Origin: an uncultured Clostridia bacterium
GTDB lineage: Bacteria; Bacillota; Clostridia; TANB77; CAG-508
Assembly: GCA_947589135.1 (NCBI GenBank)
Contig: CANPZT010000001.1
Span: forward strand, 1-39,651
DNA: 39,651 nt
Direction of reading: 5' to 3'
Shown here: in pieces, positions 5,503-21,109 of the stretch
Position numbering within the stretch: position 1 is the first letter of the stretch
Layout of the letters: each line of letters begins with the position of its first letter
Translations under genes and position numbers: made by a program
The notes under the pieces: model-generated
Told to the model about the DNA's origin: nothing
Databases searched by the model: none
The model's input: only the letters and a program-made list of their open reading frames with translations

Positions 5503-6325
5503 TTAACCTATTAATTCTTTAATTGCCTGATTATATTGCTCTTCATTTGGAGCTTTTCCATGCCATCCTACTTGATTTTCCATAAATGATATTCCTTTTC
5601 CTTTTATAGTTTTTGCTATGATACAAGTTGGCTTTCCTTTTACATTTTTTGCTACTTCAAATGCTTTTATGATTTCTTCTATATCATGCCCATCTATGTT
5701 GATTATTTGAAATCCAAAACTTCTAAATTTTTCATCAATTGGATAAGAACTCATTACATCTTCTATTGTTCCATCTATCTGTAAATTATTATTATCAACA
5801 ATAACACAAAGATTATCTAGTTTGTATTTATTAGATGCCATCGCTGCTTCCCATATTTGTCCTTCTTCAATTTCTCCATCTCCTAGAACACAATATACTC
5901 TATAATCTTTTTTATCTAATTTACCGCTAATTGCTATTCCGATTTGCTACTGATAGTCCTTGTCCTAATGAACCTGATGTCATATCAACTCCTGGAACTT
6001 TGTTCATATCTGGGTGTCCTTGTAGGTTGCTTTTGATATTTCTAAATGTATTTAATTCGTTTGGGTCAAAATATCCTCTGTGTGCCAAACAACTATATAA
6101 TGCTGGTGAACAATGCCCTTTTGATAATACTAGCCTATCTCTGTCTTCCCATTTTGGATTTTTAGGATTAATATTCATTTCTTTAAAATATAATACTGTT
6201 AAAATATCAGCAATTGAAAGTGACCCTCCTGGATGTCCTGATTGTGCATTATATACTTGTTCTATAATTCCTTTTCTAATTTGTTTTGCTTTTTCTTTTA
6301 AGAAATTTATATCTTCACTTTCCAT
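5503..6325 (-). CDS. transketolase, N-terminal (TPP-binding) subunit. Frame is interrupted at in-frame CGG 5941-5939 and is contiguous only with a +1 shift.
   Basis: ORF fragments 5927..6325 (GHPGGSLS, SKGH, GSLGQGLSVAN then R-N-S-N-stop) and 5503..5841. The +1 frame is open from 5940 and reads GIAISGKLDKKDYRVYCVLGDGEIEEGQIWEAA (TPP motif). Confidence 0.85.
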
Positions 6326-6467
6326 TGTTTTGCTCCTTTCATATTTTTGTTTATTCTATTATTACTTTTATTTTGTCTATTTTGATATGTTTTTATTATA
6401 TCTTTGATATTTATATTTGTCTATATTCTCACATCAAATTTTATATAAACTTTATTATAATTTTTGT

Positions 6468-6656
6468 CATCAAGATGAAATTAAATAAATTGTAAAAATA
6501 TAGCGAATTGAAAGTAATTTGAATTAGAAATTCTCTATCAATTTTATGGAAAGAGTTCAAGCTTGTCTTGGAAGGGTGCCATAAAATTGATTTAGAATTT
6601 CTTTGAAAATTAGCTTGAACGAGCATTTTTACAATTTATTTAATTTCATCTTGATG
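6468..6656. repeat. palindromic structured intergenic element, copy B
   Basis: Perfect 32-bp inverted repeat at 6468-6499 / 6625-6656. It encloses an interior that is near-identical to the one at 20944-21061. The inner long stem is GAAATTCTCTATCAATTTTATGG / CCATAAAATTGATTTAGAATTTC. Confidence 0.85.
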
Positions 6657-6732
6657 TTAATGATTATTAATTATCAAATTTTATAATATTACATAAAAAT
6701 CCTTTTTAGTTTTTCAAAAGCAGAATATTTAA

Positions 6733-6761
6733 TTGTCTTTTATTATACAATATATTATAAT
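6733..6761 (+). promoter_or_regulatory. putative sigma-A promoter of pepV
   Basis: TTGTCT (6733-6738), a 17-nt spacer, TATAAT (6756-6761), then RBS AGAAAGGA and the ATG at 6783. Confidence 0.45.
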
Positions 6762-18477: not shown

Positions 18478-20763
18478 TTAATATCTTCTATATCCTATAT
18501 TTAAGTCTACATCCCCTGAAATTCCAGATACAGTTCCTGTACTTGTATATTGCCACATATCATATTCATATTTGAAATTAGTTGGTTTTGATGCACTTCC
18601 TGTATAATGTGCTAACCATATTTCATATTGAGAAATGCGTGAATATTCTAAATTATTATAATACCAATCTCTACTAGCATACACCATTGGAGTATATCCT
18701 TTTGATTGTATTGCATTACAAAATGCTATAATTGTATCTGTCCTTGTCTTTTTGTCCAATTTATCAGCTCTTCCTGTTGCTCCATTTAATGCTGTTTCTG
18801 AATCAACAGCTACTGGATATGTAATTTTATAATTTTTTAATAAGCTTGCTACATAGTTTGCTTCTTCTACTGCCTCTGATACATTTACTGCTGCTGGGAA
18901 GAAATATATTCCAACATTAATTCCTGCTGCCTGTGCTCCTTCAATATTCTTTTTAAAATAACTATCTGTATATAATCCTCCTGATGTTGCTCCTCTATAT
19001 CCACATCTTATCATTGCAAAATCAACACCAGATGCCTTTACTTGTTTCCAATTAATATTGCTTCCATTCCACTCGCTTACATCTATTCCTTTATATTGTC
19101 TTTTATATTTTGAAACAATTCTAATTCTAATTCCCTCTATTCTTTTACATTGTCCTACTGTTCCTGCAGTTTCTCCATCTATATACCACTGACTCCATCC
19201 ATAGTCTTGAATATGTACCTGATATTCTACTGTATATGCATCTAATCCTTGTAACTTAATTTGTAAAGCTTCTATTCTTCTACTCATTCCTTGTGTCCCT
19301 GCAAGTTGTCCATCTGATACCCAACCTTGCCATCCAACATCTTGTACATGTGCTCTATATAAGACTTTTGCATCTGTTGGCACATCTTCTAGTTGTATTT
19401 TAATTGCTTCTATTCTTTTGCATTGTCCTTGAGTTCCTGAAATAAATCCTTCTGCCGTTGTTTCTTGCCATCCAATATCTTGCACATGTGATTGATATTT
19501 TACTTCTGGCTCTTTCTTTTCTGATCCTGATTTTATAATTCTAATTTGAATTGCTTCTATAGCTCTACATTGACCAGTTGTACCTGCTATTTCTCCATTT
19601 TTCTTCCATTTTTGCCATCCATATCCTGAAACATGAGCTCTATATTCTACACTATATCCTGATATATTTTCTATATTTATTTTTATTGCTTCTATTGCTT
19701 TTGCTCTTCCTTGTGTACCTGCTAAAGCGCCATTTTCTACCCAATTCTGCCATCCTATATCTTGTACATGTGCTTGATATGTAATTTTACTTCCTGATGG
19801 AACTTCATTTAAGTTAATCTTTATTCCTTCCATATTTTTAGATTTTCCTGTTGTTCCTGCCATACTTTCGCCAACTTTATCTTGCCATCCTATATCTTGT
19901 ACATGTGCTTGATATTGCACTTCTGGTTCTTGTAATACTTCCGCTTTTTTAGTTATTTTTACTTGAATAGATTCTATTCTTAAATTTTCTCCTACTGTAC
20001 CTGCTATCTCTCCATCTTTTCTCCATTTTTGCCATCCTTGGCCTTGTATATATGCTCTATATTCTACACTATAATCTGATATATTAACTAAACGAATCTT
20101 TATAGATTCAATTTTTTTAGCTTTACCTTCTGTTCCAGATAATGCTCCATTTGATACCCAAGCTTGCCATCCTATATCTTCAACATGAGCTTGATATTCA
20201 ATCTTTGCATTTGAGGCTGCATTCAATAAACTAATATTTAATGCTTCTAAACTTTTTCCACTACCAGCTGTCCCTATTGTTGTTCCATCTTGTACATATG
20301 AAGTCCATCCTTGATCTGAAATATGTGCTCTATACTGAACTCCTAATGTTGCTGATACGCTAGTTAGCATTATTCCTGTATTTATTGATTCTATTTCTGT
20401 ATCTTCTACTAATGTATTTGTAGTATTTTGATTAGTTGAATTTTGCACATTATTCATTGTATTTGTATTATTCTTTGTACTATTTGTTGAATTTGTATTA
20501 CTATTTGTGTTATTTGTATTATTGTTATTTATATTATTGCTATTTTTATTAGTATTATCTGTATTAATGTTATTTTTTGTGTTATTCATTGTATTAGTAT
20601 TATTTTGTGTACTATTTGTTAAATTTGTATTAGTACTATTTTGTACGCTATTTGTTGCATTTGTATTAACATTTTCTGCATTACTACTAAAAGCTACCAT
20701 AGACACTATATTACAAATAAAAATAATTAATATTGCACTTGTTAAAAACTTAAATTTGTTCAT
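18478..20763 (-). CDS. secreted cell-wall hydrolase: signal peptide, Asn/Thr-rich linker, nine ChW repeats, C-terminal GH25 muramidase domain
   Basis: C-terminus YKGIDVSEWNGSNINWKQVKASGVDFAMIRCGYRG is GH25-like. Nine H(V/I)QDxGW units. Probable start is the ATG at 20763 (MNKFKFL), with GAAAGGAAGGA upstream. Confidence 0.88.
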   Translation of the reverse strand: MNKFKFLTSAILIIFICNIVSMVAFSSNAENVNTNATNSVQNSTNTNLTNSTQNNTNTMNNTKNNINTDNTNKNSNNINNNNTNNTNSNTNSTNSTKNNTNTMNNVQNSTNQNTTNTLVEDTEIESINTGIMLTSVSATLGVQYRAHISDQGWTSYVQDGTTIGTAGSGKSLEALNISLLNAASNAKIEYQAHVEDIGWQAWVSNGALSGTEGKAKKIESIKIRLVNISDYSVEYRAYIQGQGWQKWRKDGEIAGTVGENLRIESIQVKITKKAEVLQEPEVQYQAHVQDIGWQDKVGESMAGTTGKSKNMEGIKINLNEVPSGSKITYQAHVQDIGWQNWVENGALAGTQGRAKAIEAIKINIENISGYSVEYRAHVSGYGWQKWKKNGEIAGTTGQCRAIEAIQIRIIKSGSEKKEPEVKYQSHVQDIGWQETTAEGFISGTQGQCKRIEAIKIQLEDVPTDAKVLYRAHVQDVGWQGWVSDGQLAGTQGMSRRIEALQIKLQGLDAYTVEYQVHIQDYGWSQWYIDGETAGTVGQCKRIEGIRIRIVSKYKRQYKGIDVSEWNGSNINWKQVKASGVDFAMIRCGYRGATSGGLYTDSYFKKNIEGAQAAGINVGIYFFPAAVNVSEAVEEANYVASLLKNYKITYPVAVDSETALNGATGRADKLDKKTRTDTIIAFCNAIQSKGYTPMVYASRDWYYNNLEYSRISQYEIWLAHYTGSASKPTNFKYEYDMWQYTSTGTVSGISGDVDLNIGYRRY
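19115..20345 (-). repeat. array of nine ChW-domain coding repeats
   Basis: The same repeat unit as in the CotH gene, in alternating long and short subtypes. Confidence 0.8.
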
Positions 20764-20918
20764 TTTTATAATCCTTCCTTTCAAAAATACAAATATTATT
20801 TAAATCCTTTTTTAATGTCTTTTCTTATTTATTTTATCTTTTTCTACATACTTTGTCAATAAATTTTATACAGTCAATTATTGGAATTACAACTATTTTA
20901 ATATATATAAATTTCAAG

Positions 20919-21086
20919 AATGTTATAATAAAAATAAAAGTTTTGATTGAAAGTAATTAAGATAGAAATGGTTAATCAATTTTATGGAAATAGTTCAAGT
21001 TCAACTTGAAAGGGCGCCATAAAATTGATTTAACATTTCTTCTAAAATTAGCTTGAACGATAAACTTTTATTTTTATTATAACATT
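20919..21086. repeat. palindromic structured intergenic element, copy D
   Basis: Perfect 25-bp inverted repeat at 20919-20943 / 21062-21086. The interior is near-identical to copy B (ATTGAAAGTAATT..ATCAATTTTATGGAAATAGTTCAAG..GGGCGCCATAAAATTGATTTA..AAAATTAGCTTGAACGA). Confidence 0.85.
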
Positions 21087-21109
21087 TTTGAAATAATTAC
21101 AAATCCATA

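Follow-up and report, generated by a model that had tools for sequence, protein, structure and literature searches.

The 39.6-kb stretch of DNA analyzed here (the window; 26.7% G+C) contains two long palindromic elements, copy B between tkt and pepV and copy D downstream of a glycosyltransferase (GT2) gene, which have a common center but different closing inverted repeats. We conclude that B and D probably belong to an invertible family of palindromic repeats that resembles MITEs (transposable elements of the miniature inverted-repeat type) and has a selected, strand-specific center. As part of the same probable reading, the family is small, noncoding, and nonautonomous and populates the intergenic DNA of a clade of low-GC, small-genome gut Clostridia. 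The initial annotation of this DNA, which had placed B at 6468 to 6656 with perfect 32-nt arms and had paired it with D because of a near-identical interior, was right on both points. The features of the two copies are listed below. In this list, A3 is an alignment of 78 distinct copies of the family, R1 is the covariance model built from A3, and L followed by a number is a locus taken from another assembly.

6468-6656 (189 bp), + strand: copy B, whole palindromic element; the same element, inverted, is at the same site in L146 to L149, L154, and L155
6468-6499, no strand assigned: left arm of B, 32-nt perfect inverted repeat, defined by inverted-repeat pairing
6625-6656, no strand assigned: right arm of B, 32-nt perfect inverted repeat, defined by inverted-repeat pairing
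6499-6630, + strand: conserved asymmetric center of B; R1 score of 124.4 bits on the + strand versus 38.1 bits on the − strand
6500-6502, + strand: ATA bulge of B, part of the center
6503-6525 (GCGAATTGAAAGTAATT..) with 6606-6624 (..AAAATTAGCTTGAACGAGC), + strand: basal junction of B, part of the center
6526-6534 / 6594-6602, + strand: inner stem of B, based on A3 pair counts
6537-6549 / 6579-6591, + strand: second inner stem of B, based on A3 pair counts
6550-6578, + strand: apical domain of B, a purine-rich 6x6 internal loop around a hairpin
6550-6555 (AAAGAG) / 6573-6578 (AGGGTG), + strand: internal loop of the B apical domain
6556-6572, + strand: apical hairpin of B, TTCAAG-CTTGT-CTTGGA, in which the U·G pair is 6557 with 6571
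20911-21094, + strand: copy D, whole element, with arms at 20911-20943 and 21062-21094 and center at 20938-21068

The palindrome of B extends imperfectly to 6457 to 6499 and 6625 to 6667 (43 nt, 91% complementary), and the arms of D can be described either as 25 nt that are perfect or as 33 nt at 97%. The centers of B and D are identical at 99 of 118 positions (84%), and the shared center is ~118 to 130 nt long. An alignment of the B and D arms is no better than AT-rich background, which bears out the statement that the closing repeats (32 nt in B and 25 nt in D) differ in sequence as well as in length. As had also been described, the apical hairpin keeps its pairing around a different loop in each copy, CTTGT in B and TTCAA in D. 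Both elements are nonrandom and strongly structured, as the initial annotation held: the predicted fold of B is −78.2 kcal/mol (z = −12.0) and that of D is −69.8 kcal/mol (z = −13.5), and in neither case did any of 200 dinucleotide shuffles do as well. Read on the + strand of the window, the 5' side of an element consists of a variable arm, a basal junction that begins CGAAT (and has several subtypes), and the stem AGAAATTCT; the middle consists of a short variable stem, TTTTATGG, the loop AAAGAG, a variable hairpin, and the loop AGGGTG; and the 3' side consists of CCATAAAA and then AGAATTTCT, a 3' junction that ends in AGCTTGAACGAG or GTAATGAGCCGAG, and the other arm. R1 scores B at 124.4 bits and D at 101 bits, both on the + strand, versus 34 to 38 bits on the opposite strand. 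The best promoter-like sites for tkt (6423 to 6395, − strand) and pepV (6733 to 6761, + strand) lie on either side of B and overlap it at neither end, in agreement with its annotated position between divergent promoters. D is flanked by the stop codon of the GT2 gene on one side and, on the other, by the promoter of the gene that follows. Promoter-like sites within the B and D regions are not above shuffle expectation.

The family extends well beyond the window. An exact-pattern scan of one genome per species matched at least 119 stretches, and among the matches listed there are at least 90 true copies at 87 loci in at least 58 species-level Clostridia assemblies, all of these counts being lower bounds. 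The hosts are all uncultured Clostridia, Clostridium sp., or Eubacteriales metagenome-assembled genomes (MAGs) from human, rabbit, ruminant, and mouse gut; the rest of the listed matches are chance matches in other phyla. R1 finds ~10 more copies within 8-kb loci that were not picked by the pattern, which would imply a density of roughly 1 copy per 60 kb. The window itself has three R1-detected copies (A, B, and D) and one half-deleted relic (C); the covariance model, which the initial annotation had proposed building, also recovers copy A. The listed copies range from 170 to 470 bp in size and share no conserved open reading frame (ORF), and 89 of 90 are intergenic. Their orientation is nearly random when compared with that of both flanking genes (30 −,−; 20 +,+; 12 convergent; and 10 divergent), and all-against-all ORF clustering across the 87 loci gave no recurrent neighboring protein family other than housekeeping ones. 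One MAG carries the same element at two loci (L008 and L102).

Comparison with known sequences gave no match to the family. At Rfam 15 gathering thresholds the sole match in the window is tRNA-His, and a permissive scan of 6400 to 6720 returned only chance-level matches to MIR7125 (E = 0.16) and U6 (E = 6.4). The comparison with Rfam that had been suggested for B and D therefore matched no family, and identity with a known ribozyme or riboswitch was rejected since no such family was matched in these scans. BLAST against plasmid and phage collections and a pattern scan of viral contigs found no family member (the 8 viral pattern matches are unrelated coding sequence), and the core sequence strings returned nothing relevant in a full-text literature search. 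Apparently, this repeat family has so far not been described.

The center of B is found in the opposite orientation at the orthologous site of related genomes. Six loci (L146 to L149, L154, and L155; ~5 contigs, which come from four ENA samples and one partial Logan contig) have a PepV that is 91 to 92% identical to that of the window. Their tkt-pepV spacers and that of the window are colinear, and the 189-bp element is present in them too, with its center reverse-complemented. When B of the window is compared with L146, 179 of 189 positions are identical in the flipped orientation without gaps, versus 147 of 189 in the direct orientation with gaps, and the flanks are ~94% identical and colinear. 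Relative to pepV, the R1 match is on the + strand in the window and on the − strand in all six related loci. The ATA bulge is on the left arm in the window but on the right arm in L146, and because the bulge and the junctions flip with the center, the exchange points lie in the outer arms. The arms of B are shorter than the final assembly k-mer, so that the orientation should be resolved, and the six related loci agree with each other. A second orthologous flip is found between L104 (OV788638.1) and L109; D and its orthologue in L156 are in the same orientation.

The differences between orthologous arms also bear on how the arms are maintained. All three arm differences between B and L146 are mirrored on the other arm; of the two between D and L156, one is fully and one partly mirrored; and one of three is mirrored between L104 and L109. 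In the arms of 68 copies, 97.6% of 2,478 positions are paired, and the mismatches include 16 G·T and 21 A·C, with no wobble preference. Mirrored differences together with the lack of a G·U bias suggest that arm complementarity is maintained at the DNA level. Between copies, arm identity is at background once center identity falls below ~85%, while the center stays 80 to 90% identical.

One mechanism best explains the compensated arms. The arms behave as DNA inverted repeats that probably recombine intramolecularly or template-switch during replication, and either event would flip the center that lies between them. The same arm-arm process would copy changes from one arm to the other, so that arms would drift fast between copies and yet stay near-perfectly complementary within a copy. 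The center would resist this symmetrizing and be kept by sequence-specific selection. The initial annotation had taken the compensated changes as the signature of a selected nucleic acid structure, a reading that is not supported for the arms, given that the center inverts at orthologous loci, that arm changes are mirrored, and that there is no G·T bias. If changes are copied from arm to arm, the apparent compensation is a by-product of DNA mechanics and is not evidence for an RNA. Quasipalindromes are known to be made more perfect by template switching (PMC7202029), and quasipalindrome correction, or flip-flop recombination, fits the mirrored changes, the absence of a strand bias among mismatches, and the inversion of the spacer. 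However, it is a general DNA mechanism and leaves the conserved asymmetric center unexplained. Nested target-site duplications were considered as a source of the asymmetric internal loops but found no consistent support.

Comparison of related genomes is consistent with mobility. Apart from the window, B is found only in the lineage with 91 to 92% identical PepV, and it is absent at ≤83% identity (L174 to L177 and L120 to L123); the boundaries of B could not be placed against the element-free spacer of L174, to which the alignment is too diverged. D is present in L156 and absent from L157 to L162, and another palindrome occupies its site in L165, L166, and L168. Ordered by GT2 identity, D is present in CANQWL01 (95%), absent at 93%, and replaced by the different palindrome at 92%. 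There is also an empty site for copy C: the rml genes are 17 nt apart in L018 (OV788638.1, whose proteins have 83 to 88% amino acid identity to those of the window) and 160 nt apart in the window.

Some copies of the family lie inside shells whose terminal repeats are conserved and which are bounded by target-site duplications of 8 or 9 bp. Shells with GTTAC...GTAAC ends have 8-bp duplications, which match at 8 of 8 positions in L013 (ATAGAATG) and L106 (ATCTTGAT) and at 7 of 8 in L004, L064, and L117, and shells with TTAAGTTTCGG ends have 9-bp duplications (L094, TAAGTATTT; L045, GATTTAATA). Subsets of copies share GTTACNGGTTAATGGTTT, TTAAGTTTCGGTTTTTT, or ACTGTCAACCTAAA ends, which the arms of B and D do not have. 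The same shells also occur empty (L007 and L049) or with unrelated centers (L082 and L112), and matching end pairs enclose only short noncoding DNA. Over all copies, the distribution of duplications does not differ from that of the control. The ends of a palindrome are difficult to locate in AT-rich DNA, which leaves the shell-bounded copies as the only ones that are informative on this point. The initial annotation had stated that target-site duplications and mobilization by a nearby transposase would make this an ordinary MITE and refute its reading. As to that scenario, the family is mobile and MITE-like and has duplications in its shell-bounded copies, but at copy B none can be read.

The family is similar to MITEs such as bcr1 of the Bacillus cereus group, ERIC, and RUP in that it is small, noncoding, multicopy, and intergenic, forms a long stem-loop, differs in presence between relatives, and in some copies has conserved terminal repeats with direct duplications. 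A long stem-loop fold has been described for MITEs, with compensatory changes in the case of bcr1 (PMC3184786), so that pairing is kept there as it is here. In contrast to MITEs, this family has a center that is conserved across at least 58 species and arms that vary even within one genome, and one center is found in shells with different ends (8-bp versus 9-bp duplications), which also occur empty or with other centers. Nor has a partner transposase been identified, in ~1 Mb of locus sequence.

The conservation of the center extends far beyond B and D, as the initial annotation had predicted from these two copies. In A3, the inner pairing is standard in 98.6% of cells over 23 pairs, versus 40 to 55% pairing in slid controls, and it survives double changes at 12 pairs (110 cells), a count that none of 500 shuffles reached. 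The invariance of TTTTATGGAAA / GCCATAAAA in A3 is a consequence of the search pattern, and copies that were found independently of the pattern vary at these positions, with compensated changes among them. Of the inner-stem compensation (AGAAATTCT/AGAATTTCT) that had been described between B and D, one D pair is truly compensated (G-C for U-A), and one G·A is uncompensated. Similarly, the 9-nt complementarity GTTCAAGCT/AGCTTGAAC that had suggested a pseudoknot is present in B but is not conserved across the family. A conserved pseudoknot of the form GUUCA/UGRRY was rejected, its 5-nt partner recurring in only 43 of 78 copies versus ~15 expected.

Several features of the center are specific to one strand, again in line with the initial annotation. 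A U·G pair (columns 65/85) is present in 58 of 78 copies and would read C·A on the other strand, and among the other pairs of the center G·U exceeds A·C by 17 to 7. Every internal loop is purine rich on both sides when read on the + strand. In addition, the loop base X of GGAAAX (6553 in B) covaries, in a non-Watson-Crick manner that resembles a base triple, with the G or A of the U·G or U-A pair (6571 in B): G occurs with G in 58 copies and A or U occurs with A in 20, with no exceptions, in several subfamilies. The center also evolves more slowly than the arms and flanks. Although the center is itself a quasipalindrome, its asymmetric sequence has been kept across many species, and from this we infer that it is under sequence-specific selection on one strand. 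Most likely, the active form is a single strand in a folded state (single-stranded DNA, or RNA that arises from read-through), which is recognized by a trans-acting factor; it could be, for example, a cis signal for spread or upkeep of the element, or a small RNA module. Three more specific candidates were considered and rejected. By eye, the nonbulged strand has no G·A beside the C-stem of a K-turn; CsrA-type GGA motifs are not conserved in type-1 copies; and a small peptide, ATGGAAAGAGTT...CCATAA (11 to 12 codons), is contradicted by hairpin lengths that vary by non-multiples of 3.

Several observations weigh against an invertible, MITE-like family. Canonical MITEs conserve their ends and not their center, and here the reverse is true. 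In addition, one center is found in two shell types with different ends and duplication lengths, and a simple MITE model leaves this unexplained. B and D themselves have no recognizable conserved terminal repeats, no duplication is readable in their AT-rich flanks, and their mobility is argued from presence and absence between relatives, which loss could explain too. No autonomous partner (a transposase with matching ends) was found in ~1 Mb of locus sequence. The orientation evidence consists of only two clean orthologous flips and one clean non-flip, all from short-read assemblies, and the function of the center is inferred.

A broader proposal, which we put forward tentatively and regard as rather doubtful, is as follows. 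The center might be a new class of structured single-stranded RNA or single-stranded DNA with a specific three-dimensional fold that is carried at the apex of the palindromic shells of several unrelated mobile elements, or actively targets that apex, and its flipping might be an invertase-independent, recombination-driven orientation switch near cell-surface and metabolic genes in gut Clostridia.

Another explanation is that these copies are a multicopy family of structured noncoding RNA genes, in which the center would be a trans- or cis-acting RNA and the arms a closing helix (e.g., for RNase III processing or stability) kept paired by selection on the RNA. This is what the strong folds of B and D, the covarying inner stems, and the strand-specific R1 scores would lead one to expect, as would the U·G pair and G·U excess on one strand, the conserved purine-rich loops, the tertiary-like covariation, and the slower evolution of the center relative to the arms and flanks. 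However, arm mismatches show no G·U preference (16 versus 21 A·C), and the center flips relative to neighboring genes and promoters, with an orientation relative to genes that is near random. There is no promoter-like box at a fixed distance and no terminator; a search of the arms for a −10-like box at a fixed distance, or for a positional peak, found none, and a fixed inward promoter was rejected. The presence/absence pattern, target-site duplications, and half-deleted copies resemble those of a mobile repeat, and no Rfam family was matched. We consider this explanation unlikely, although with regard to the center it is compatible with the invertible, MITE-like family and the two are not exclusive.

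The flipping of the center also raises the question of whether B and its relatives are programmed invertons, that is, phase-variation switches flipped by a dedicated site-specific invertase encoded elsewhere that alter expression of neighboring genes such as tkt and pepV or cell wall genes. Invertons are segments of 100 to 200 bp between inverted repeats, often near cell-surface genes (PMC11892184), and like C. difficile RecV switches and Bacteroides Mpi sites, the family has an invertible segment in both orientations and a connection with cell-surface genes. At orthologous sites (between genomes), the ~130-bp segment enclosed by the inverted repeats occurs in either orientation, its content is orientation specific, and several window copies are in or beside cell-surface polysaccharide and lysin genes, a typical inverton neighborhood (PMC11892184); the genes of the window are housekeeping, rhamnose, glycosyltransferase, and Wzt cell wall genes. 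In contrast, the repeats of invertons share a motif recognized by the invertase, and the interior usually has a promoter. In the present family, different copies have nonhomologous repeats, exchange takes place within these variable outer arms, which a sequence-specific enzyme could not recognize across copies, and neither the center nor the arms have a conserved promoter. No linked invertase was found: no recombinase gene recurs near the copies in the 87 loci, and the window contains no recombinase or transposase gene. Related contigs from four ENA samples and one Logan run all have one orientation, so switching is not fast. The family is not a typical inverton, and a programmed switch of this kind is very unlikely.

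A duplicated bidirectional terminator or mRNA-stabilizing hairpin would fit the position of copies between genes, the A-run before and T-run after the closing GC pairs of type-1 copies (GAAAAAAGC...GCATTTTTG), and the location of D after the GT2 stop codon and ahead of the following promoter, but it is extremely improbable. A scan for terminator-like sites (a short G+C-rich hairpin directly followed by a U-tract) found none in the B or D regions, and only a weak, non-Watson-Crick junction forms the hairpin base beside the T-run. The promoters on either side of B diverge, so that a terminator would serve no need there, and other subtypes have no T-run.

Two other groups of intergenic repeats are similar to this family in part. 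The terminal repeats of Correia elements are 26 bp long and conserved, and these elements also possess a TA duplication, an IHF site, and defined promoters. None of these was seen in the family studied here, which is in a different phylum, has no sequence similarity to Correia elements, and has variable arms of 25 to 70+ bp. Nevertheless, the Correia elements (CREE/NEMIS) of Neisseria are palindromic and MITE-like, lie beside genes, have an invertible interior, and may give hairpin transcripts. REP units and REPINs, with their RAYT enzymes, and IS200/IS605-derived PATE are likewise intergenic hairpin repeats, on which HUH enzymes act in single-stranded DNA form. In REPIN hairpins, correlated changes preserve the pairing. 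REP units, however, are short (20 to 40 nt) and conserved in sequence within a genome, and DDE-type insertion, which those families do not perform, is indicated by the shells' 8- and 9-bp duplications. The initial annotation had suggested searching the genome for transposase or HUH genes that could act on the hairpins; no such gene recurs in the 87 loci, and ORF clustering across them found no RAYT or TnpA gene near any copy. For Correia elements, inversion has been reported (Elbeyioglu et al. 2017, as cited in PMC10969869).

These results add an abundant, apparently undescribed repeat family to a poorly known clade of uncultured gut Clostridia. They would also provide a natural example of "compensatory" changes in long hairpins that arise from DNA-level recombination or template switching between inverted repeats, which is a caution for covariation-based discovery of noncoding RNAs in palindromic repeats. 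The reversed architecture (a conserved asymmetric center with free arms), the multishell occurrence, and the orthologous flipping raise testable questions: what reads the center, and does its orientation affect the neighboring genes? MAG assembly is affected as well, since orientation is ambiguous if arms are longer than the k-mer and hairpin-apex deletions occur.

The other two members of the family in the window are a distant relative, copy A, and a half-deleted A-like element, copy C.

1184-1315, + strand: center of copy A, a distant superfamily member; R1 score of 53.2 bits, E = 3.4e-10
13807-13966, no strand assigned: block of inserted DNA that contains copy C (13816-13920), with an rmlA-like gene on one side and an rmlC-like gene on the other

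The whole palindrome of copy A is at ~1104 to 1373. Copy C is an A-like element without the 5' junction and apex and is flanked by two small GTTGTCA..TGACAAC hairpins. Both A and C are flanked by small ATGTCAAAA..TTTTGACAT hairpins that contain TTGACA. The orthologue of A in L154 and L155 (L154:1103-1262) has only the left half and is cut at the apex loop. In two cases, then, namely copy C and the orthologue of A in L154, a half-deletion reaches as far as the apex, which suggests breakage at the hairpin tip.

The pepV-upstream spacer has a family member in at least three lineages, in different subtypes (L137:~1700-1900, L006:1537-1664, and window 6468-6656). The L137 copy has a type-2 junction and a different apex, GAGGAAGCGGGAATAGCGAGAGGCTC, and closer relatives have no copy at this site. 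This indicates either repeated colonization or an old insertion with module swapping. In the L008 and L102 copies of the one MAG, a noncoding insertion of ~97 nt lies in the 5' junction of a family member (L008:4400-4500) and bears an 8-bp duplication that matches at 7 of 8 positions (TTGAAAAA / TTGGAAAA); family elements are therefore themselves targets of other small insertions.

A second, unrelated palindromic family is present in the window at 9712 to 9849, with a class I (Trp/Tyr-type) tRNA synthetase gene on one side and obg on the other. Each of its arms forms a small hairpin of its own, with GGGGWCGGTYC as the loop, and the window copy (TGAGACAATGGGGACGGTCTTTAAATGTCTCA) has 39-nt arms and a 60-nt spacer. 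This family is also found at the D site in L165, L166, and L168, at L174:~1330-1390, and in L011, L021, and L105, and its members occupy the same intergenic slots that B and D fill in other relatives.

Among the genes of the window, the only tRNA is a tRNA-His (GTG) at 127 to 203 (− strand), the sole Rfam or ARAGORN match. The transketolase N-terminal gene next to B (5842 to 5945, − strand) is split into ORFs of 132 and 112 amino acids by a +1 frameshift near AATCGGAAT, with the expected ...GIAISGKLDKKDYRVYCVLGDGE encoded in the downstream frame. The same split (132 plus 110 amino acids) is present in L146 to L149, L154, and L155, which are independent assemblies, and the L174 gene is intact at 273 amino acids. 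The split is either a lineage-specific pseudogene or frameshift or a shared error. The Obg ORF (8422 to 9390, − strand) begins inside the GTP1_OBG domain (profile positions 102 to 155), and its N-terminal part is apparently in another frame at 9391 to 9700, beginning near 9697. Possibly, this essential gene contains a second frameshift, which would hint at assembly consensus errors. Finally, 15860 to 20784 encodes two large ChW-repeat surface proteins (CotH-ChW and a ChW-GH25 lysin), which yield most of the direct-repeat families of the window, with units of ~135 to 138 nt, and an AT-rich coding repeat with a 15-nt period lies at 20415 to 20671, near the 5' end of the lysin gene.

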